A stretch of 64,000 nt of DNA. Source: Escherichia phage AV117. This document shows, piece by piece, positions 1,101 through 64,000 of this stretch. Made by a program: the position numbers and the translations under genes. Each line of letters opens with the position of its first letter. The stretch's first letter is position 1. Below the pieces are notes generated by a model that was not told the origin of the DNA, searched no databases, and saw only the letters and a list, made by a program, of their open reading frames with translations. The stretch lies in sequence record OR352947.1; one strand, 5' to 3'.

Positions 1101-1140
1101 GATAGGTCTATAATATCATGTTTGAAGCAAAAGTAAACTT
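1101..1140 (-). promoter_or_regulatory. T4-type early promoter (GTTTAC-N17-TATTAT) upstream of motA
   Basis: minus-strand reading GTTTAC TTTTGCTTCAAACATGA TATTAT AGACCTATC; approximate coordinates. Confidence 0.6.
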
Positions 1141-1421: not shown

Positions 1422-1460
1422 GATAGGTCTATAATATCATGTTTGAAGCACATGTAAACT
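1422..1460 (-). promoter_or_regulatory. T4-type early promoter, near-duplicate of the motA promoter
   Basis: gataggtctataatatcatgtttgaagca...gtaaac repeated about 320 bp from the first copy; approximate. Confidence 0.6.
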
Positions 1461-3692: not shown

Positions 3693-3730
3693 GCTAATTT
3701 CCTCAATTGATTAATGTTTTTGTAATCCAT

Positions 3731-3766
3731 GAGAGCATTATACTCTGCTCTCAAGAGTTTGTACAA
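3731..3766 (-). promoter_or_regulatory. early promoter (TGTACA-N17-TATAAT) inside the palindrome GAGAGCA...TGCTCTC, upstream of ndd
   Basis: gagagcattatactctgctctcaagagtttgtaca; a near-identical copy lies at 48558-48593. Confidence 0.55.
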
Positions 3767-3768
3767 TT

Positions 3769-3969
3769 TTATTCGGTTATATCAGAACGTTCAAAAAGCT
3801 CTTCAACAGTTAAACATTCTGTGTCATCCTCAATAAAGAATCGGGTCCAACACGTTGGGGCGATACAGTTATGAGTTTGTCCGGCGATAGAAGCTACACG
3901 AATAAGCTGCTGACCATTATTCAGAACAAATTTTTCACCAATTTCAACATCTTTAAAAAGCTTAGCCAT
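3769..3969 (-). CDS. hypothetical protein (66 aa)
   Basis: ORF; the ATG lies only about 10 nt downstream of the -10 element, so either leaderless or mis-started. Confidence 0.35.
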   Translation of the reverse strand: MAKLFKDVEIGEKFVLNNGQQLIRVASIAGQTHNCIAPTCWTRFFIEDDTECLTVEELFERSDITE

Positions 3970-3970
3970 T

Positions 3971-4009
3971 GATAGGACTACTATACCATAATCCTACCTT
4001 GATGTAAAC
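3971..4009 (-). promoter_or_regulatory. early promoter-like element with palindrome AGGACTA...TAGTCCT-like flanks
   Basis: GTTTAC-N18-TATAGT-AGTCCTATC on the minus strand. Confidence 0.45.
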
Positions 4010-4479: not shown

Positions 4480-4518
4480 GATAGGACTACTATATCATAG
4501 TCCTACTTAGTTGTAAAC
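4480..4518 (-). promoter_or_regulatory. early promoter within the palindrome GGACTACTATATCATAGTCC
   Basis: GTTTAC-N18-TATAGT followed by AGTCCTATC then GAGGA RBS. Confidence 0.55.
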
Positions 4519-8735: not shown

Positions 8736-8827
8736 AATATTCTCTTCAGTAGATTCCTAGGGCACTATTACTAAAGACCATATAATCTATCATCTTATGT
8801 GTAATAGTGCCTCAGGCTATTCAGGAT

Positions 8828-12890: not shown

Positions 12891-13144
12891 TAAGTTGTAC
12901 CATTTTCAGTGATTTCACGGAAGATGCCATAGATAGGCATTTCGTCACCGAGTTTTTCGTAAACGTAAACCACTTCGGTGTAGCATAAAAATTCGGTCCA
13001 GTTTTTCTGTACAACAACTAAATCAGGATTAAACAGAACATCTTCAAACTCATCGATGTTTGAATCAGTAGTTACGTTTTTAATGATTTGACGTTTCATA
13101 ATATTCTCCTCTTGTTTTGATAGGTCTATAGTATCATAGACCAT
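12872..13144 (-). CDS. hypothetical protein (real start probably internal at about 13099)
   Basis: the track start lies upstream of the promoter TSS; internal MKRQ start has a GAGGAG RBS. Confidence 0.45.
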
Positions 13145-13156
13145 AGTTGTTGTACA
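13119..13156 (-). promoter_or_regulatory. early promoter within the palindrome GGTCTAT...ATAGACC
   Basis: TGTACA-N17-TACTAT-AGACCTATC on the minus strand. Confidence 0.5.
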
Positions 13157-13681
13157 TCATTTTAGCAAAATAAAATCAACTTGTTCTGACAATGAACGTC
13201 TAAACATTAATTGACAACTTCCGAGGATGAAATCAGGTGCTTCATAGACCGCGATGTAGTATCCTTTAGCTTTCAAGAGTTCAACATCCACCTGGTCATC
13301 AAACCATGCATAAACCGCGTCAACACTTTCAAATCCAAAATATAACCCTTTAGCCCAATCTTCACTCAATTCAAATGAGTGGTCAATTCTATAGTATCTT
13401 AAGATATTTTGTTCAAGGAGTTTGTCTTCATTTACTGTAGGACGATTAGGGACATTATAGTTGTCGCCGTGATGGTAGAAGTTACCTGAGAGTATTCCAT
13501 GCTTATCAAGGAACTCCCATGTTTCTTCAGAGTTGTCGGTGCCCGACCAACCGTATGGCGAACGAGGTTCTTTATTCCAAGAGGTTTCCCAAATTCTGAC
13601 GGCTTTACCATCTTCGATAGCAATTCCTGGTAATGATTCACGTTGAGTACAAAAACTACGTTCTACGCGGTAAACTAACAT
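13157..13681 (-). CDS. hypothetical protein (174 aa)
   Basis: ORF with upstream promoter. Confidence 0.5.
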   Translation of the reverse strand: MLVYRVERSFCTQRESLPGIAIEDGKAVRIWETSWNKEPRSPYGWSGTDNSEETWEFLDKHGILSGNFYHHGDNYNVPNRPTVNEDKLLEQNILRYYRIDHSFELSEDWAKGLYFGFESVDAVYAWFDDQVDVELLKAKGYYIAVYEAPDFILGSCQLMFRRSLSEQVDFILLK

Positions 13682-13699
13682 ATTATTCTCCTCTGGTTG

Positions 13700-13736
13700 A
13701 TATGGTTATAATATCAAAACCAGAGGAGAAGTAAAC
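13700..13736 (-). promoter_or_regulatory. early promoter with -10 element in the loop of the 9-bp inverted repeat CCTCTGGTT/AACCAGAGG
   Basis: GTTTAC-N17-TATTAT on the minus strand; the inverted repeat also contains the GAGGAG RBS. Confidence 0.55.
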
Positions 13737-13740
13737 AACT

Positions 13741-14688: not shown

Positions 14689-15224
14689 TAATTAAGGATA
14701 TTAACTACTGCACTACGTGGAACCACACTAAAATCACCGGCATGAACAACGTTCAGAAGTTCAACACCGTCTTCAATCCATTGGTCAGTTACCCATCCAT
14801 TTACTGGACCATCGAATGGGCGTCGAATTGAAACATATTTACACAATAAATCAGTAGGCTCAATAGGCTTAATCAGAGTACCGTACATACAAACGATATC
14901 CATATCAAAGTGGAGACCATCTTTAACAGGTGCTTCTTCAATCAAGAGTTCAAAGTCGGTGCTTGGAAGGGCGGTAGTAGAAATTGTACCGTATAAATTT
15001 TTAATTTCTAAGAATAACCAAGGGCCTTCAACTTGTTTAATGAAGTTAACAATAGTGAAACTATTACCTTGAGTGGCGCCTAAAATTTCACAAAACTTTT
15101 CGTAAGCTCGCACTGAAGCACCGTACCAATTGATTTGTTTTTCGTCTTTCAGGATGTAAGTAGCCGTAGTATTGATATTCATAATGTTTTCCCGTTTGGT
15201 TAAGATAGAAAGATTATACTCCAA
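14688..15224 (-). CDS. hypothetical protein, paralog family member C (start probably internal)
   Basis: C-terminal TDQWIEDGVELLNVVHAGDFSVV; more diverged N-terminus. Confidence 0.5.
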   Translation of the reverse strand: MEYNLSILTKRENIMNINTTATYILKDEKQINWYGASVRAYEKFCEILGATQGNSFTIVNFIKQVEGPWLFLEIKNLYGTISTTALPSTDFELLIEEAPVKDGLHFDMDIVCMYGTLIKPIEPTDLLCKYVSIRRPFDGPVNGWVTDQWIEDGVELLNVVHAGDFSVVPRSAVVNILN

Positions 15225-15242
15225 CCGTCCTTGGTTGTAAAC
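15205..15242 (-). promoter_or_regulatory. early promoter; repeat family TATACTCCAACCxTCCTTGGTTGTAAAC
   Basis: GTTTAC-N18-TATAAT; near-identical copy at 57055-57094 and a third variant at 58045-58086. Confidence 0.5.
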
Positions 15243-18346: not shown

Positions 18347-18384
18347 GATAGGTCTATAATATCATGCCCTCAGGTAGTGTACAC
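18347..18384 (-). promoter_or_regulatory. early promoter
   Basis: GTGTAC-N17-TATTAT-AGACCTATC. Confidence 0.5.
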
Positions 18385-18458
18385 TCTTTTTTCGTAAAAT
18401 GCTTTAATTTTTTATGTGTTATAATGGTTCTGAGTTCCATCTGGTTATTCCAATCCAG

Positions 18459-19084: not shown

Positions 19085-19124
19085 TTGATAAAGGTATAGT
19101 ATCATCATCGGAAGAGTTTGTACA
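19085..19124 (-). promoter_or_regulatory. early promoter upstream of the modA-like gene
   Basis: TGTACA-N17-TACTAT then AGGAG RBS. Confidence 0.5.
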
Positions 19125-19706
19125 CTAAAAATTCAACATTTTCAAATGAATGATTTTGTATAATCGAGATAAAGGGTCATATTCTAAGTCTTCAATTTCC
19201 ACAATCTCAAATCTAGAGATACCTGAGACCATGTACTCTTGTTCAGATTCAATCATATCTAGGACATCGATACGAGTTTCTTCCATAACATGCTTAGGGT
19301 TTTTTCCGGCAAGTACAATGTTAATCATGTTTTGGTAGTAATCAAAAATGAATGGAGCATTCCTGAGACTAAGAATAGTGTACGTCTGATATTCCCAGCT
19401 CCCGGAGAATTGACGAGCTGTACTGAAATCAGTTGTGAACGATGTTACTCGTCCAGGAGACCAATGACATCCAACAGAAAGAAGGGAAAGTCGTTCTACT
19501 TCTTCCGGAGTTACACCGCGGTAGAGTTCTACTGGTACTGTAGAAGTCATATGCTTACGAACAAGATGGTCTAATTCATAGTGGAAATCCGGGTCTTCCT
19601 TAGAATCGGTGCAAGCCCAGAGAATATTTTGTTCTTGGCGGGTGAATTTGCTATCAATCAGATTTGTTAGGTATTCACGTTCTTGAAGTTCAGATTGACA
19701 TGTCAT
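19125..19706 (-). CDS. modB: ADP-ribosyltransferase, ModB-like
   Basis: 193 aa; LYRGV, SFTTDFSTA, SEQEYMV elements of an R-S-E ADP-ribosyltransferase. Confidence 0.65.
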   Translation of the reverse strand: MTCQSELQEREYLTNLIDSKFTRQEQNILWACTDSKEDPDFHYELDHLVRKHMTSTVPVELYRGVTPEEVERLSLLSVGCHWSPGRVTSFTTDFSTARQFSGSWEYQTYTILSLRNAPFIFDYYQNMINIVLAGKNPKHVMEETRIDVLDMIESEQEYMVSGISRFEIVEIEDLEYDPLSRLYKIIHLKMLNF

Positions 19707-21067: not shown

Positions 21068-21224
21068 CCATCATGAATGAGTGTACGACTACATCATCAT
21101 AATATCCAAGACCGTATTTCAACGAAACTTCTTGAGCAATCAAAGCACCTAATGTGTTATTAGGTTTAATCCAGCGATTTAACATATTGTTCTCCTCTTG
21201 AGTAAGTAAAGAATATCTTAACAC
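20958..21224 (-). CDS. hypothetical protein (88 aa)
   Basis: ORF. Confidence 0.4.
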   Translation of the reverse strand: MLRYSLLTQEENNMLNRWIKPNNTLGALIAQEVSLKYGLGYYDDVVVHSFMMDGEDVKFNAEIRWDDGGVRFVRGTINAYDAEEVVCC

Positions 21225-21266
21225 AGTTTTTAGTGGTTGTAAACTGTAGGTAGAAACAAAAAAAAA

Positions 21267-21288
21267 AGGAATCCCGAAGGATTCCTTA
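21267..21288 (-). terminator. strong intrinsic terminator (UUCG tetraloop) after soc
   Basis: aggaatcc-cgaa-ggattcct; minus RNA followed by a run of about 10 U. Confidence 0.7.
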
Positions 21289-25077: not shown

Positions 25078-25140
25078 TTTAACTCCTTAGTTGATTTGAT
25101 AGGACTACTATACTATAGTCCATCTATAATGTAAACAAGT

Positions 25141-25404: not shown

Positions 25405-25447
25405 ATTTGTTATGTTTATAATATCTTGTTTTGACTTTGGCGTAAAC
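25405..25447 (-). promoter_or_regulatory. early promoter upstream of the imm-like gene
   Basis: GTTTAC-N18-TATTAT. Confidence 0.45.
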
Positions 25448-25819: not shown

Positions 25820-25879
25820 TTCAATTTCCTCTGTAGTTGATAGAAAGATAGTAACACAGTATGCGATGCTTGTAAACAG

Positions 25880-26093: not shown

Positions 26094-26306
26094 TTATCCT
26101 CTTAAATCAGCTTCAAAAACTTTCTCGTCATTAACAAATGCTTTAACTAATGCGTTGTTCACTTCAGCAAGTTGTACAGCAACCCACTCAATTTCTTCAC
26201 GGTCACCTGATAACATGATATCTTTAGTGAACATCTCACCGCTTTTAAACCAACCAATAAAAGTAACTTTAGTTAATTTGCTCATATTTCCTCGCAAAAT
26301 GCCCAT
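26094..26306 (-). CDS. dmd: Dmd (discriminator of mRNA degradation; antitoxin vs RnlA/LsoA)
   Basis: start probably MSKLTKV; VTFIGWFK...MFTK.I....D...W...Q.AEVN.ALVKAF..D.KV.E.D.RG matches my recollection of T4 Dmd (60 aa). Confidence 0.8.
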   Translation of the reverse strand: MGILRGNMSKLTKVTFIGWFKSGEMFTKDIMLSGDREEIEWVAVQLAEVNNALVKAFVNDEKVFEADLRG

Positions 26307-26599
26307 TCAGCGTGATAAACTGTAGCACCTTTAGTATCATTCATTTGAACTACATCTACCGGAGAAATTACTCGATAGAGACGTGGTTCACCTCCATAAG
26401 AGCGTGCTGCTCGTCCTGCATAAATCTTTGCTAAACCGATATCTTCAGTAAAGAATACCCGATCCAAGTTTTTCTTACGTCCTGTTTCAGACAGAACTCC
26501 TGTTTCTTCAGGAGGACAAAGCATGTTTTCGATGTTAGCTGAACTACTTGAACCGTGATAAAAAATCTTAAATTCTGCTTTACAATCGATGGTTTTCAT
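26282..26599 (-). CDS. hypothetical protein (105 aa)
   Basis: ORF with GGAGAA RBS and promoter upstream. Confidence 0.45.
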   Translation of the reverse strand: MKTIDCKAEFKIFYHGSSSSANIENMLCPPEETGVLSETGRKKNLDRVFFTEDIGLAKIYAGRAARSYGGEPRLYRVISPVDVVQMNDTKGATVYHAEWAFCEEI

Positions 26600-26607
26600 T
26601 TTGTTCT

Positions 26608-26654
26608 CCAGTAGTTGATAGGTCTATAATAACACAACTACTGGAGAAGTAAAC
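26608..26654 (-). promoter_or_regulatory. early promoter with -10 element flanked by the 10-bp inverted repeat CCAGTAGTTG/CAACTACTGG
   Basis: GTTTAC-N17-TATTAT-AGACCTATC; the first 30 nt are duplicated at 59682-59711. Confidence 0.55.
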
Positions 26655-27029
26655 TTAAAAACGTAATTTAGATACATCTGCGTTGATTTCGCTTTGGTTT
26701 GCGTCGTATGCAATTAAACGAACAGCTTTAGATGGGTCATTCAATGCATAGAAATGATGGAACATTGCTCGAACGATATCACCATTTACGAGTTCTACCT
26801 GGATAGGAGAACCTTTTTCGAGTTGGAAATGTTCATAAGCTTTGATGGTTCGCAGATAATCAAGTTTTTGATTTCCGGCTCCAACAATTTGTACAATACG
26901 TTTGCCCATGTTTTCCATACGAGATACAATAGTTTTAGGAGCAAGAATAACGTAGGTTGCCAGCGGAGAAACTACTTCAACAGTTGTGTTTTCGGTGATT
27001 GCAGTAAAAATTGCTTGAGACATATTCAT
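26655..27029 (-). CDS. hypothetical protein (124 aa)
   Basis: ORF. Confidence 0.5.
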   Translation of the reverse strand: MNMSQAIFTAITENTTVEVVSPLATYVILAPKTIVSRMENMGKRIVQIVGAGNQKLDYLRTIKAYEHFQLEKGSPIQVELVNGDIVRAMFHHFYALNDPSKAVRLIAYDANQSEINADVSKLRF

Positions 27030-27054
27030 AATGTTTTCCTCTTGGTTTGTGTAA

Positions 27055-27088
27055 GTACATCATATCATGCCTAGAGGAAGATGTAAAC
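27055..27088 (-). promoter_or_regulatory. early promoter directly downstream of the gene 41 terminator
   Basis: GTTTAC-N18-TATGAT. Confidence 0.5.
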
Positions 27089-27093
27089 CCCGA

Positions 27094-27111
27094 AAGGAGA
27101 CCGAAGTCTCC
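27094..27111 (-). terminator. UUCG-tetraloop hairpin after gene 41
   Basis: aggagac-cgaa-gtctcct; a T-run follows on the plus strand and a weaker U-tract on the minus. Confidence 0.5.
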
Positions 27112-27117
27112 TTTTTG

Positions 27118-28569: not shown

Positions 28570-28932
28570 TTAAAAGAATTTAAATTTTTTCTTGGTCCGT
28601 TCATTAAAAGCTTGTTGTACTTGCATTGTAACACATTTTTCAACATGCGGTGCAAGTTCTGCTTTTCTGTCCTGGTCAAGAACTGCAAAGTCCATTACGA
28701 TTTTACCATCAACCCAGTCTAGTTTTGTAATATAGACTATATGATGAGAACCATCTTCAAGTGTAATCAGAATCTCTTGAATGACATTTTCCATTGCTGA
28801 ACGGATAATTTTAAGAGATTCATTAAACACTCGTTCTTTGCGAATGTCTTCCCCTTCCGAAGAAGGGGATTCATCAACGATTTCTAGATTTAAATCATCG
28901 AGATTATTCATCGAAATCTTCCATTTCGTCAA
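28570..28932 (-). CDS. 40: gp40-like protein (head vertex assembly chaperone position)
   Basis: 120 aa between 41 and uvsX as in T4; sequence identity not verified. Confidence 0.5.
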   Translation of the reverse strand: MTKWKISMNNLDDLNLEIVDESPSSEGEDIRKERVFNESLKIIRSAMENVIQEILITLEDGSHHIVYITKLDWVDGKIVMDFAVLDQDRKAELAPHVEKCVTMQVQQAFNERTKKKFKFF

Positions 28933-39499: not shown

Positions 39500-39519
39500 A
39501 ATGGGACCGAAGTCCCATT
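39500..39519 (-). terminator. UUCG-tetraloop terminator after regA
   Basis: tgggac-cgaa-gtccca; a TATAAT box for gene 43 follows immediately downstream on the coding strand. Confidence 0.55.
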
Positions 39520-46134: not shown

Positions 46135-46154
46135 AGGAACTCCGAAGAGTTCCT
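46135..46154 (-). terminator. UUCG-tetraloop terminator upstream of gene 47
   Basis: aggaactc-cgaa-gagttcct; minus RNA followed by UUUUUUUGCUUU. Confidence 0.6.
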
Positions 46155-47631: not shown

Positions 47632-47703
47632 AAGTACCTCTTAGCTCAATTCATAGGTCTATTATATCATAATATTTAGAGACCTATCTTAAAGCACGAG
47701 ATA

Positions 47704-48197: not shown

Positions 48198-48565
48198 TTT
48201 ACCGCCTTAACAATTTTCAGGTCAACGAATTTTTTCTTACGTTGATTTTTCATACGACGGATAGTCTTTTCAGAGATTTCATGTTTCTGATAAGCTTTAG
48301 ATTCAACACCAAATGCAGCAACGTCAAATTCAGAAAGAATATATTGTACTAGAATTTCACGAATAGAATTACGTCCAATTTTCTGGTCGTGTTTTTGCAT
48401 GATTTCATAAAGACGGAATTCCCATGCGTCAAGGACTTGAGGAGTAACAATATTGCCGGATTCCAGAAGAGCAACAACTTTATCGAAAGCGAAAGAATTA
48501 ACTACGTTTTTGATTTTAGTAGACATATTATTTTCCTCGGTTATTTTATTATCCAATGAGAGCAT
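48194..48565 (-). CDS. hypothetical protein (real start probably internal MSTKIKN at about 48526)
   Basis: the track start overlaps the -10 of the duplicated promoter; internal start has a GAGGAAAA RBS. Confidence 0.45.
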   Translation of the reverse strand: MLSLDNKITEENNMSTKIKNVVNSFAFDKVVALLESGNIVTPQVLDAWEFRLYEIMQKHDQKIGRNSIREILVQYILSEFDVAAFGVESKAYQKHEISEKTIRRMKNQRKKKFVDLKIVKAVK

Positions 48566-48593
48566 TATACTCTGCTCTCAAGAGTTTGTGCAT
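48558..48593 (-). promoter_or_regulatory. early promoter, near-identical duplicate of the ndd promoter
   Basis: gagagcattatactctgctctcaagagtttgtgca, 1 mismatch over about 35 nt versus 3731-3766. Confidence 0.55.
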
Positions 48594-48832
48594 TATTCCG
48601 TGATAAGATAATGTAAATAGTTTGCTTGACGAACACTGATATCAACACCCATATCAAAGATACCTTTATAGAACGGGTATTTGTTTTCAGTAGAATCTAG
48701 ACTAAAAGCCTTTCCACCACAACTAACGGTAATAGCATCAGTTAAAGTGTCATATACAAACTTAATAGTTGAGCCATTCACTACGACTTCAAGACGTTTT
48801 TTCGATGTAATAACGTCTAATTCTTGTTCCAT
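48593..48832 (-). CDS. hypothetical protein (79 aa)
   Basis: ORF. Confidence 0.45.
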   Translation of the reverse strand: MEQELDVITSKKRLEVVVNGSTIKFVYDTLTDAITVSCGGKAFSLDSTENKYPFYKGIFDMGVDISVRQANYLHYLITE

Positions 48833-48895
48833 GATATTTTCCTCATTTTAAGACGATAGGAAGATAATAACACGTCTTCCTATCGTTGTACATTA

Positions 48896-49784: not shown

Positions 49785-50083
49785 GGCTTAATTTCCTTCG
49801 CAATTGAACAGAAGATACCACGGTCACAAAGCATTTCACCAATTTCTGGATATTTGATTGAACGGTACCAAACATCCAGGCTTGAAACTCTGGTTATCTG
49901 TATTGCATTACCATTGACAGAATAGTACTGGTCGACCTTAATTTCTTTATCTTCAATTGTCATTTTATTTTCCTCTATAGTAGATGGTTTAATCTTAACA
50001 CATCTATTGAGGATGTAAACTGTTTTATGAAAATATTTTCGATTTGAGAGGGGCACAAGGAGATAGTGAAGTGAAGATTCCAA
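49781..50083 (-). CDS. hypothetical protein (100 aa)
   Basis: ORF. Confidence 0.4.
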   Translation of the reverse strand: MESSLHYLLVPLSNRKYFHKTVYILNRCVKIKPSTIEENKMTIEDKEIKVDQYYSVNGNAIQITRVSSLDVWYRSIKYPEIGEMLCDRGIFCSIAKEIKP

Positions 50084-57054: not shown

Positions 57055-57094
57055 AGATAGAAAGATTATACTCCAACCATCCTTGGTTGTAAAC
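57055..57094 (-). promoter_or_regulatory. early promoter, near-identical duplicate of the 15205-15242 element
   Basis: gttaagatagaaagattatactccaaccatccttggttgtaaactg. Confidence 0.5.
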
Positions 57095-58044: not shown

Positions 58045-58086
58045 TGTTGAAAAATTTATTATACTCCAACCATCCCTGGTTGTACA
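58045..58086 (-). promoter_or_regulatory. early promoter, third member of the TATACTCCAACC repeat family
   Basis: TGTACA-N17-TATAAT then GAGGAA RBS. Confidence 0.5.
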
Positions 58087-59082
58087 TCATTCCTTAAGAA
58101 GTTTTACTACTTGAATAAGATTAGCTCGTTCCGTTTTATTTTTACCATTTAAGCCTGCTAATCGTGAGATTTCATCATCAGTCTGTTGAATAGTTACATT
58201 AAGTTCGTTAATCAAAGCTTCAAAGTATTTGATTTGCTCAGCATGTTTTGATTCAAATTTCTGAACCGGAATAACGTCTTGGTTCAGTTCATCAATAAGG
58301 TCTTTAAGAGCATCTTCTTGGTTGATATCATATTCAACTTCTTTTATTTCTTCAACGAGCTCGTCTTTATATCTAACGTCTTTTAGTCCTGGTGCTGGTC
58401 CTGAAATCTCTTCTTTAAGAGTACAAACATATCCAATACGGTATCCAATGCCGTCTCGCTTGATATCAACTTCGTCAATAAATCCACAATGTTTAAGACC
58501 AGAGCCGATTAGGTCAAAATATCCTTGACGTCGTCCTTCAAACGTTACACGAACTACTAAGACAGTTTTACCTGCAACCTTTTGAAGCTCACATTTATAA
58601 AAGTTTGTTGAACCTGAATACCGTGGATGAGTTTTAAAGTTCATCTGACGATCTAGGCCCATTTGTAAGCGTGCTGATACGGCCATAAAACGTGTTTGGT
58701 TCTCGTTAAGATGAGCAACAATCCATTTCAAAGGCATTTTACACTGTTCACGACCGAACAAATCAGTACGTCCTAGATTACGCAGAATGTTGTTAGAGTT
58801 AATCATCGACAGAACGTTAAGTTTATTCAGCGCGCTGAAGATTCCATCAGCCATTGATTTTCCGTAACCTTTACACGCTTTAATAAGCGCTCGCGGTAGA
58901 TTAGTATAAATTTCAGACGGCATATGAAAATCAAATTTACTAGTCAGTAATTGATGAACTTGGATAGCAATTTGCTCATAATTAAGTGCTCTGCGATCAT
59001 TATGGTCTTTAAACCACACTTTAATCTGTGAAGCACATAAACCGTTAATTTCATGTTTTACCGCATCAGATGTAATGCTCAT
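58087..59082 (-). CDS. hypothetical protein with C-terminal coiled coil (331 aa)
   Basis: C-terminal heptad-like region after residue 240. Confidence 0.5.
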   Translation of the reverse strand: MSITSDAVKHEINGLCASQIKVWFKDHNDRRALNYEQIAIQVHQLLTSKFDFHMPSEIYTNLPRALIKACKGYGKSMADGIFSALNKLNVLSMINSNNILRNLGRTDLFGREQCKMPLKWIVAHLNENQTRFMAVSARLQMGLDRQMNFKTHPRYSGSTNFYKCELQKVAGKTVLVVRVTFEGRRQGYFDLIGSGLKHCGFIDEVDIKRDGIGYRIGYVCTLKEEISGPAPGLKDVRYKDELVEEIKEVEYDINQEDALKDLIDELNQDVIPVQKFESKHAEQIKYFEALINELNVTIQQTDDEISRLAGLNGKNKTERANLIQVVKLLKE

Positions 59083-59672: not shown

Positions 59673-59681
59673 GTTTTACCT

Positions 59682-59728
59682 CCAGTAGTTGATAGGTCTA
59701 TAATAACATAACCATAGACCTTGTAAAC
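59682..59728 (-). promoter_or_regulatory. early promoter, partial duplicate of the 26608-26654 element
   Basis: ccagtagttgataggtctataataaca shared; GTTTAC-N17-TATTAT. Confidence 0.5.
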
Positions 59729-59730
59729 AA

Positions 59731-61164: not shown

Positions 61165-61205
61165 TCGATAGGTCTATAATAACATATCCTAAAAGCATGT
61201 ACACT
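61165..61205 (-). promoter_or_regulatory. early promoter downstream of the 61236-61253 terminator
   Basis: GTGTAC-N17/18-TATTAT-AGACCTATC. Confidence 0.5.
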
Positions 61206-63020: not shown

Positions 63021-63563
63021 TTATTTCAAAGTCGGGATAATAGAATCAAGATAAGCTTTAAGAGCAACTGCTTCATCTTTGTCTAATGTAACGATATGTT
63101 GACGAAGGTCATCAATTTGACGAATAACTACGACATCACCATCTTCATAAGAAGGATTAACGCCTAGGACTGTTGTATAGTCAGGGCGGTCCTGATTTGT
63201 AATAAAAGCATTACGGCATTTAGCCCATTGAAGTTTGGCCTTTTTGGCTGTTTCAGATTCCATGAATTCTTTCACTTTAGCGACGAATGTTTTCCAATTA
63301 TTAATAGAAAAACATTCGTCTTCAGTTTCGATATTAACCCCACTATAAAGTCCATGATAAAAACGAACTTGAAGGTCTTCGTTAATGTTAATTACAGATG
63401 CATGACCCGGTGGATTGAGTTTCAAAATCTTGTCTAGTTCCATAGGAAGAATAGTAGCAGCATCATCTTCTTGTGTCAGAACATACACATAACCACGTTT
63501 TTCGATACATAAATCACCAAACAACTCGGTTGTTTCAATTACAGTTTTCATATTATTCACCAA
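63021..63563 (-). CDS. hypothetical protein (180 aa)
   Basis: ORF. Confidence 0.5.
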   Translation of the reverse strand: MVNNMKTVIETTELFGDLCIEKRGYVYVLTQEDDAATILPMELDKILKLNPPGHASVININEDLQVRFYHGLYSGVNIETEDECFSINNWKTFVAKVKEFMESETAKKAKLQWAKCRNAFITNQDRPDYTTVLGVNPSYEDGDVVVIRQIDDLRQHIVTLDKDEAVALKAYLDSIIPTLK

Positions 63564-64000
63564 TTAAAGTTTCAACAAAATTCACCAAAGCATTCTGACA
63601 AGCATCAACCTGATTTTCATAAAAGTCTACATTATCATTTACCGCATGATAAGCTACATCATTCAAATCTGAATCGGCTTCACGTAAGTCACGGATAAGG
63701 TCCATCAATTTATTAGCTTGTTCACGGGTCATTTTACCATACTCGTTTCAATAAGATTCACTATGCCGTTTACCATGTTATAAGTAAACATCGGATAATT
63801 GTATTGTACTACAACATAAGCGATAAGCAAAAGTTTCATTTTGTTCTCCATTTGTTTTGGTAGGACTACTATAACATAGTCCTACCAAGACGTAAACTAC
63901 CGATTGTGTTTTAAATGTTGATAAAGCTCTTCAACTTGTTTGGGGTCCAAAACAATTAAGTCATTTTCTTGGCGAAGATAAATCCATCCCTTATCCCCAG

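Follow-up and report, generated by a model that had tools for sequence, protein, structure and literature searches.

The stretch of DNA analysed here, referred to as the window, comprises 64,000 nucleotides (nt) of Escherichia phage AV117 (sequence record OR352947.1). Its focal element is an early promoter embedded in a long inverted repeat on the minus strand at 26604-26657, between two small co-directional open reading frames (ORFs). In the direction of transcription, the locus is composed as follows.

26655-26657, minus strand: stop codon TAA, which ends the upstream ORF (26655-27029) and borders immediately on the -35 hexamer
26649-26654, minus strand: -35 hexamer GTTTAC of the focal promoter
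26635-26648, minus strand: 5′ arm TTCTCCAGTAGTTG, which fills the spacer, includes the anti-Shine-Dalgarno tetramer CTCC and lies 5′ of the predicted start
26626-26634, minus strand: extended -10 element, TGT plus TATTAT, sitting in the loop of the palindrome
26617-26625, minus strand: box AGACCTATC, corresponding to -6 to +3, with the predicted +1 at the A at 26619
26604-26617, minus strand: 3′ arm CAACTACTGGAGAA, which includes the Shine-Dalgarno (SD) sequence GGAG (26606-26609)
26282-26599, minus strand: downstream ORF of 105 amino acids (aa), orthologue of RB69 ORF040c, with its ATG at 26599

RNA reading through this element was predicted to fold with a free energy of -22.1 kcal/mol (z -4.9), whereas the primary transcript of the focal promoter gave 0 kcal/mol, and the predicted accessibility of the SD fell from 0.75 to 0.00 in the read-through RNA. 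Because the 5′ arm (-23 to -10) lies 5′ of the predicted start site, the promoter's own transcript cannot form the hairpin. An earlier reading of the letters, made without database searches (the sequence-only reading), had proposed that the transcribed half-sites give the mRNAs 5′ stem-loops; this is not supported, since the 5′ arm would not be transcribed from the promoter concerned.

The 105-aa ORF lies just upstream of dmd and has conserved counterparts, 55-100% identical, in 50 IMG/VR T4-like contigs. A Pfam search of the flanking small ORFs, including this one, returned no match, and an assignment of the 105-aa ORF as an Arr-type ADP-ribosyltransferase, guessed from an N-terminal FYHGS motif, was set aside as unsupported.

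The window derives from an RB69-like T-even (T4-family) phage. A 6-kb piece around the focal element matches Mosigvirus genomes (AV112, ST0, HX01 and JS09, among others) at 98% identity, and the window is 95-96% identical to RB69 and collinear with it over about 50 kb, without rearrangement at promoter cassettes; the single indel in this comparison (186 nt) lies away from the palindromic promoters. The window covers the leftward early region, running from rIIB/rIIA through 39, motB, dexA, dda, srd, modA/B, 61 and imm, and then through 41, uvsX, 43, 45, 46/47 and 55 to the nrdC cluster, with nearly all genes on the minus strand. For RB69, 58 early promoters have been predicted, with C preferred at -3 to -1 (Nolan et al. 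2006). That list contains orthologues of nearly all window cassettes, the focal element having its orthologue in RB69 Pe:20537; the strings "palindrom" and "stem-loop" occur nowhere in the text of that paper. A literature search for genome-wide maps of T4 start sites or terminators yielded nothing usable, and an Rfam scan of the whole window gave no family match.

The sequence AGWCCTATC, which the sequence-only reading had singled out as a conserved AG(A/T)CCTATC box, occurs 11 times in the window against 0.62 expected, a count reached by none of 100 shuffles. Ten of the 11 copies lie on the minus strand, each directly 3′ of a -10 hexamer and 17/18 nt 3′ of GTTTAC, GTGTAC or TGTACA; the remaining copy (47680, plus strand) belongs to the palindrome at the promoter of gene 55, where it forms the 5′ arm. 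On the minus strand, iterated position weight matrices retrieved 22-26 early-promoter cassettes, while the plus strand gave none at the same threshold; promoters 3737, 48564 and 27058 were added to the set by eye (promoters are named here by box position, so that the focal one is 26625). The claim of at least 18 elements with this box was overstated: ten boxes are exact and two carry a single mismatch (63867, 47660), while the remaining cassettes, about 17, have mainly YTATC in common (e.g. CTTTCTATC, CTTCCTATC, AACCATATC). The A at +1, T at +2 and C at +3 are invariant in all 14 of the strictest matches. A generic promoter/terminator scan did not discriminate, with 73 promoter-like sites in the window and 68 in shuffles.

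The cassettes follow a common order over about 60 nt: a stop codon, an A-rich UP-like tract (aaaa/ataaa, at -40 to -45 in aligned promoters), GTTTAC, a spacer of 17/18 nt, TGn-TAttAT, the box, and a leader of 20-25 nt with GAGG or GGAG that ends at an ATG, in most cases 26-31 nt after the start of the box. They have the attributes of T4-type sigma-70 early promoters (a GTTTAC-like -35, a spacer of 17±1 nt, TGn and a TAnnnT -10) and stand in the correct orientation directly 5′ of orthologues of T4 early genes, with SD and ATG. Their sequence, together with orthology to the RB69 predictions, identifies them as sigma-70-dependent early promoters, as the sequence-only reading had held. The involvement of MotA/AsiA-modified polymerase that it had also envisaged does not fit: the MotA box has the consensus (a/t)(a/t)TGCTT(t/c)a centred at -30 (PMC2988021), and the window promoters carry GTTTAC or TGTACA at the -35 position in its place, marking them as early rather than middle-mode promoters. 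At the promoter of gene 55 (the late sigma factor), a TGCTTTA lies 23 nt 5′ of the -10, a distance that exceeds that of a standard MotA box.

The box always adjoins the -10, and promoters that lack a palindrome (1109, 1430, 18355, 61175) conserve it equally well; it is therefore a primary promoter feature and not merely one arm of a repeat. The start site was placed by assumption at the usual seventh base after the -10, which is the seventh base of the box (the A of CCTATC). AG(A/T)CCTATC is accordingly no separate element but promoter positions -6 to +3, the discriminator and start site, and it belongs to the extended promoter consensus of the RB69-like lineage. Strong sigma-70 promoters favour a G as the second base after the -10, together with a step from pyrimidine to purine at -1/+1; both are present in the box. 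T4 has weaker or variant forms at these positions (ACAACTATC, AGAATTATC, AGTCTTGTC), whereas JS98 carries the same box AGACCTATC, and the box is far more uniform in the window phage and JS98 than in T4. In their -35, spacer, extended -10, A-rich upstream region and genes served, the window promoters match T4-type early promoters, and the CC of their box agrees with the C preference of RB69 at -3 to -1 (Nolan et al. 2006).

A leader, AUCAACUACUG(A)GGAG, that begins at the predicted +1 is common to T4 and the window phage at several unrelated genes (window 26604-26621, 59680-59695 and 25826-25843; T4, contig L002, promoters 27050, 6600, 20079 and 8188). Besides carrying the SD, this leader may have a further role, perhaps as a RegB GGAG site.

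All three palindromes quoted in the sequence-only reading are present (26608-26644, 13689-13727 and 3731-3753), the first two being longer than was stated, and its observation that an inverted repeat often encloses the -10 is true for about 40% of the early promoters. The four longest perfect inverted repeats of the 64 kb (arms of 12-14, loop of at most 40) all enclose an early -10, as do three perfect repeats of 8 bp. Two further perfect inverted repeats lie away from early promoters, on the minus strand at 63282-63320 (12 bp, 15-nt loop) and 8761-8811 (11 bp, 29-nt loop).

The palindromes fall into two classes. In the box class (4488, 63867, 48863, 59699, 13127, 3737, 48564, 47660), positions -7 to +1 are paired, around the loop TGnTATAG, with a 5′ arm located at about -23 to -16. 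In the SD class (26625, 13707, 49991, 27058, 19733), the leader and its SD are the partners of the spacer, whose first bases after the -35 are often CTCC or CCTC. Three promoters (15212, 57064, 58057) have a hairpin wholly within the spacer, and about ten have none of these arrangements. At least eight different arm sequences occur in this genome, with loops of 6-19 nt, and the constrained partner (box or SD) always forms the 3′ arm while the free spacer always forms the 5′ arm.

The pairing exceeds chance. For 57 non-redundant promoters from the window, T4, RB69 and IMG/VR T4-like contigs, we took the spacer and the 34 nt that begin at the end of the -10 and computed their most stable RNA duplex, with swapped partners as the control. 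Duplexes of -15 kcal/mol or below were found for 21% of native and 1.7% of swapped pairs, and duplexes of -10 kcal/mol or below for 42% and 16%, respectively (permutation p < 1/5000). The pairing is also directional: the spacer pairs with the downstream flank at -10 kcal/mol or below in 40% of cases against 13% in the control, whereas the excess with the upstream flank (9% against 4%) is not significant. Anti-SD tetramers occur in 26% of spacers against a background of 7%, corresponding to about seven independent cases once orthologues are counted once. T4 has its own examples at dmd (GACAAGACTA/TAGTCTTGTC), cef (TCAGTAGTTGAT/ATCAACTACTGA), motB (GGGACC/GGTCCC) and motB.2. When IMG/VR was scanned with the core ACTATGNTATAGTAGT, many unrelated matches were returned, of which the 17 with a -35-like element were informative; the match extended the stem by at least 3 bp in 9 of these 17 and in 6 of the 72 without such an element. 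Four IMG/VR contigs that are not T4-like (L106, L101, L175 and L178) carry a ACTATGGTATAGTAGT core in a TTGACA -35 context with flanking complementary TATAT..ATAT, and -10-spanning palindromes may thus not be confined to T-even phages.

Between orthologous promoters, pairing is often retained while the sequence changes. The SD of motB.2 is buried in all three lineages, by TTCTCCTCTGGTT/AACCAGAGGAGAA in the window and RB69, by TTCTCCTCATG/CATGAGGAGAA in JS98, and by a different stem (-17 kcal/mol) in T4. The sp promoter has GGACT/AGTCC in the window and GGTCT/AGACC in JS98, the cef promoter GGTCTAT/ATAGACC in the window and TAGGGTA/TACCCTA in JS98, and the motB promoter AGAGCC/GGCTCT in JS98 and GGGACC/GGTCCC in T4. 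Relative to RB69, two base pairs of the stem at 48564 have been replaced by compensatory double substitutions, one from T:A to C:G and the other from C:G to A:T. Counts of covariation at fixed coordinates were confounded by 1-nt indels (RB69 7400 and 42771) and were dropped; the in-register comparisons of cef, motB and motB.2 gave eight double changes that keep the pair and none that breaks it. Pairing strength is correlated between window and JS98 orthologues (rho 0.59, permutation p 0.014, n = 14), the spacers of which are about 40% identical, and the 50 IMG/VR loci 5′ of the focal gene show at least five different pairing solutions. Pairing is kept at motB.2 in T4, RB69 and JS98 and is absent at the orthologues of srd, imm and imm.1. 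Single-protein searches found three loci for the motB.2 gene and two for the gene downstream of 48863, so a deep covariation set could not be built in this way. Changed sequence with retained pairing fits base pairing rather than a half-site shared by a protein.

We consider the best explanation to be that these are early promoters with the box as their start region, in which complementarity of the spacer gives rise to a hairpin in read-through RNA only; we put the probability of this explanation at about one half. The otherwise free spacer would have become complementary to the box or to the leader and SD in about 40% of promoters, and the centring on the -10 is probably forced, the spacer being the sole stretch of the 60-nt cassette free to evolve a complement. 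With the start at its predicted position, the promoter is placed such that its own transcripts lack the 5′ strand of the helix. They would retain only the 3′ arm and stay open, whereas RNA from promoters farther upstream would carry both arms and fold. At 13707, for example, the predicted energies are -23.9 kcal/mol for the read-through RNA and -0.8 for the primary transcript. The predicted accessibility of the SD drops from 0.36 to 0.00 at 13707, from 0.66 to 0.02 at 49991 and from 0.42 to 0.03 at 27058; a fall is also predicted at 58057 and 47660, and the box class is otherwise unchanged. In total, the SD lies in a predicted helix of the longer transcript at 26625, 13707, 49991, 27058, 58057, 47660 and 19733. 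Translation of the gene would then be free on the early transcript of its own promoter and poor on read-through RNA. At the focal element, a ribosome terminating at the abutting stop codon (26655-26657) could open part of the stem, in which case translation of the read-through RNA would be coupled rather than abolished. The box-class hairpins would leave the SD untouched and are most likely intergenic hairpins of the upstream message, with a role in its attenuation or in protection of its 3′ end.

Several observations weigh against this explanation. The start site, on which the geometry depends, is assumed from the usual distance after the -10. The next promoter upstream of the focal gene (27058) is also early, and a purely temporal gating is therefore not obvious. 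About half of the palindromes, those of the box class, do not involve the SD, so that one mechanism cannot cover all of them, and the enrichment of anti-SD spacers is modest after orthologues are counted once. Sense and antisense duplex energies show no asymmetry (Wilcoxon p 0.97) and the sense/antisense comparison reveals no excess of G-U pairs (25/297 against 35/340), and a role in RNA is thus not favoured over one in DNA. The correlation of pairing strength becomes weak when T4 is added (Spearman 0.19, p 0.14). Finally, uncompensated changes occur in the two longest stems of close relatives (at 26625 in RB69 and ST0, one each, and at 13707 in ST0), and perfect pairing therefore appears to be under no strict selection.

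The other promoters of the window, with their arms where present, are as follows.

13686-13737, minus strand: motB.2 promoter, SD class, box AACCATATC at 13707-13699; arms TTCTCCTCTGGTT (13730-13718) and AACCAGAGGAGAA (13698-13686), which bury GAGGAG
63857-63897, minus strand: early promoter, box class, box AGTCCTACC; arms TTGGTAGGACTA (63888-63877) and TAGTCCTACCAA (63868-63857)
48853-48893, minus strand: early promoter, box class, box CTTCCTATC; arms ACGATAGGAAGA (48886-48875) and TCTTCCTATCGT (48864-48853)
48556-48594, minus strand: early promoter with a TGCACA -35, box GCTCTCATT; arms TGAGAGCA (48580-48573) and TGCTCTCA (48564-48557)
3729-3767, minus strand: early promoter with a TGTACA -35; arms TGAGAGCA (3753-3746) and TGCTCTCA (3737-3730)
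4480-4518, minus strand: early promoter, box class, box AGTCCTATC; arms TAGGACTA (4505-4498) and TAGTCCTA (4489-4482)
59691-59729, minus strand: early promoter, box class, box AGACCTATC; arms AGGTCTAT (59721-59714) and ATAGACCT (59701-59694)
47652-47689, minus strand: promoter upstream of gene 55, TATAAT plus AGACCTATG, without GTTTAC; arms ATAGGTCT (47687-47680) and AGACCTAT (47660-47653)
13119-13157, minus strand: cef early promoter, box AGACCTATC; arms GGTCTAT (13142-13136) and ATAGACC (13129-13123)
49983-50021, minus strand: 55.6 early promoter, SD class; TCCTC..GAGGA plus TAGATG/CATCTA
27050-27114, minus strand: UUCG-loop terminator (27114-27093) and, after it, an early promoter (box position 27058), the spacer of which, TCTTCCTCT, pairs with the SD AGAGGAA
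19725-19763, minus strand: modB early promoter, box AGGCTTATC; pairing between CCTCC in the spacer and the SD GGAGG
25098-25136, minus strand: sp early promoter, box AGTCCTATC; pairing GGACTA/TAGTCC of 6 bp, with a bulge in addition
3971-4009, minus strand: early promoter, box AGTCCTATC; TAGGATT/AGTCCTA with one G-T pair
15204-15242, minus strand: motB early promoter, box CTTTCTATC; hairpin within the spacer, CAACC..GGTTG, in a cassette as at 57064 and 58057
57056-57094, minus strand: early promoter, box CTTTCTATC; spacer-internal hairpin CAACCA-agga-TGGTTG
58049-58087, minus strand: early promoter, box AAATTTTTC; spacer-internal hairpin
61167-61205, minus strand: early promoter, exact box, without significant palindrome
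18347-18385, minus strand: srd early promoter, exact box, without significant palindrome
1422-1460, minus strand: early promoter, exact box, no palindrome spanning the -10; the cassette is a near-copy of that at 1109
1101-1139, minus strand: early promoter, exact box, no palindrome across the -10
25839-25877, minus strand: imm.1 early promoter, box CTTTCTATC, no palindrome
25409-25447, minus strand: imm early promoter, AAACATAAC, no palindrome
21206-21287, minus strand: UUCG-loop terminator (21287-21266) and, after it, the mrh.2 early promoter (box position 21214), without palindrome
19087-19125, minus strand: modA early promoter, ACCTTTATC, weak complementarity only

At promoter 3979, the ATG of a 66-aa ORF (3769-3969, minus strand) lies 11 nt after the -10 without an SD; being about 4 nt past the predicted start, it may belong to a nearly leaderless early mRNA.

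Some cassettes are copies of one another at unlinked loci up to 45 kb apart, with sharp edges of identity and unrelated flanking genes. The pair 57064/15212, with which 58057 groups, shares 46 nt, and the exact matches extend over 34 nt in 48564/3737, 29 nt in 59699/26625 and 37 nt in 1430/1109. Promoters 59699 and 26625 are identical from -9 to +20 and differ in their 5′ arms, which pair with the box in the former and with the SD in the latter. Because identical cassettes occur at unlinked loci, copying or gene conversion, to judge from these sequences, also helps to keep the cassettes uniform.

Such repeated cassettes recall the promoter-early stem-loop (PeSL; Arbiol 2010, PMC2839356; Comeau 2014, PMC4122927), likewise an intergenic composite of stop codon, AT-rich region, early promoter, stem-loop, SD and ATG that is repeated in the genome. 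About 40% of the window promoters have this make-up, and three more carry the spacer-internal hairpin. If the elements are PeSLs in the original sense, the stem-loop attenuates or terminates upstream transcription or protects a 3′ end, the cassettes serve as recombination sites for gene shuffling, and burial of the SD is incidental. We regard this account as possible but improbable for the palindromes as a whole; it overlaps with the read-through hairpin, and for the box class it may hold. In RB49/phi1, PeSL stem-loops commonly lie in the gap that separates the -35 from the -10 or overlap the -10, and one of them cut downstream lacZ expression as much as rrnB T1 did (PMC2839356); PeSLs also occur in T4/PST and KVP40/nt-1 (PMC4122927), and RB43 has eight TransTerm terminators inside predicted early promoters. 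The sharp-edged copies at unlinked loci of the window likewise fit recombination sites. However, RB49 has short stems of the G(n)-loop-C(n) form, for which a block of expression was shown, and those of T4/PST are drawn 5′ of the -35, whereas the window arms straddle the -10 with loops of 8-19 nt and pair the spacer with the box or SD. A-rich leaders and no sense-strand T run follow the window stems, the terminator scan called none of them, and TransTerm has none at the RB69 orthologues. Genuine UUCG terminators can lie directly 5′ of palindromic promoters (27058; JS98 18889; L005-L020), where a second terminator would be redundant, and the cassettes show no rearrangement over the roughly 50 kb collinear with RB69. 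The PeSL papers did not cover RB69- or JS98-type phages.

A functionless origin, in which the palindromes are by-products of templated (quasi-palindrome, strand-switch) mutation that repeatedly turns an unconstrained spacer into the complement of constrained sequence nearby, appears unlikely. Templated quasi-palindrome mutation is well known in T4 rII, and several features of the palindromes suit it: the arms are mostly perfect Watson-Crick complements without strand asymmetry, the constrained sequence is always the 3′ arm and the free spacer the 5′ arm, and arm sequences turn over between lineages and carry uncompensated changes in close relatives. Such mutation does not readily account for the directional pairing, which involves the downstream flank but not the equally adjacent upstream flank, or for its persistence at particular orthologous promoters such as motB.2 and its absence at srd, imm and imm.1. 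The multiple compensatory changes also speak against it, though templated conversion could yield these as well.

The sequence-only reading had taken the palindromes for possible operators of a phage regulator or for cruciforms. T4 early shut-off is stated to be of unknown mechanism (PMC2988021; PMC3014915), and a DNA-level element that switches early promoters, through a dimeric regulator or a cruciform, could serve such a purpose. Box-class palindromes have their symmetry centre inside the -10 element, at about -11/-12; this would suit it, as would the lack of strand asymmetry and the TAGGWCT..AGWCCTA common to seven promoters. We nevertheless consider it very improbable, since a single operator of one half-site and fixed geometry is incompatible with arm sequences of at least eight unrelated kinds and with loops that vary from 6 to 19 nt, orthologues retain pairing rather than sequence, shut-off is general but palindromes are confined to about 40% of early promoters, and cruciform extrusion is disfavoured by the loops of 17-19 nt of the longest palindromes.

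For the hairpin confined to read-through RNA, the closest precedent is found at T4 e, soc, 49 and I-TevI, where SD-sequestering hairpins are relieved by an internal promoter (PMC3014915). There, as predicted for the SD class, the long transcript hides the SD in a helix, and transcripts from the internal promoter lack the 5′ arm and are open. In the T4 cases the internal promoter is late (gp55, TATAAATA) and translation is delayed, whereas in the window it is an early sigma-70 promoter (GTTTAC, TGnTATTAT). By analogy, the window variant, to which about 7 of about 26 promoters belong, would restrict or insulate early translation.

Hairpins with a UUCG tetraloop and GC-rich stems lie on the minus strand at 27093-27114, 21266-21287, 46135-46154 and 39500-39519. 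The first three are intergenic and followed by a T run, and two stand directly 5′ of early promoters 27058 and 21214. From their sequence, the UUCG hairpins look like the real intrinsic terminators of the window phage, of the classical T4 CUUCGG type. The same loop at 28850-28869 may be within a coding region. Both the terminators and the promoter palindromes are intergenic between co-directional genes, but the palindromes lack the GC-rich stem, the UUCG loop and the T run. The terminators inside RB43 early promoters (Nolan et al. 2006, supplementary tables) have stems of 8-9 bp, an example being 3977-3995 inside Pe:4005, and RB69 has none such; promoter-embedded hairpins of different T4-like groups may differ in kind.

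T4-type early promoters (predicted for RB69 in 2006) and promoter-embedded stem-loops (as PeSLs) are already known, and the promoter palindromes are a variant of the promoter/stem-loop cassettes described in T4-like phages. This analysis goes beyond the earlier papers in separating box-pairing from SD-pairing classes, in its statistics on directionality and covariation, and in recognising that the hairpin is possible only in read-through RNA. For RB69- and JS98-type phages, it newly spells out that the spacer is complementary to sequence just 3′ of the -10 in about 40% of T-even early promoters, and this directional, compensatorily kept complementarity holds for the T4 dmd, motB, motB.2 and cef promoters too. 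In annotation, the sites should be labelled as early promoters with a start-site consensus, not as operators or RNA leader structures. A broader view is unlikely but of interest: a large fraction of early promoters across T-even phages (T4, RB69, JS98 and relatives) may use the spacer as a built-in antisense arm against their own start-site or SD region, in a general "promoter-gated" layer of early control in which the promoter that made an RNA would decide the translation or fate of each early message, or the palindromes may instead act in DNA and contribute to early shut-off. If the hairpins work in read-through RNA, translation of motB.2, modB, 55.6 and ORF040c would be tied to each gene's own promoter, which would extend to early promoters a mechanism known only for late-promoter cases.

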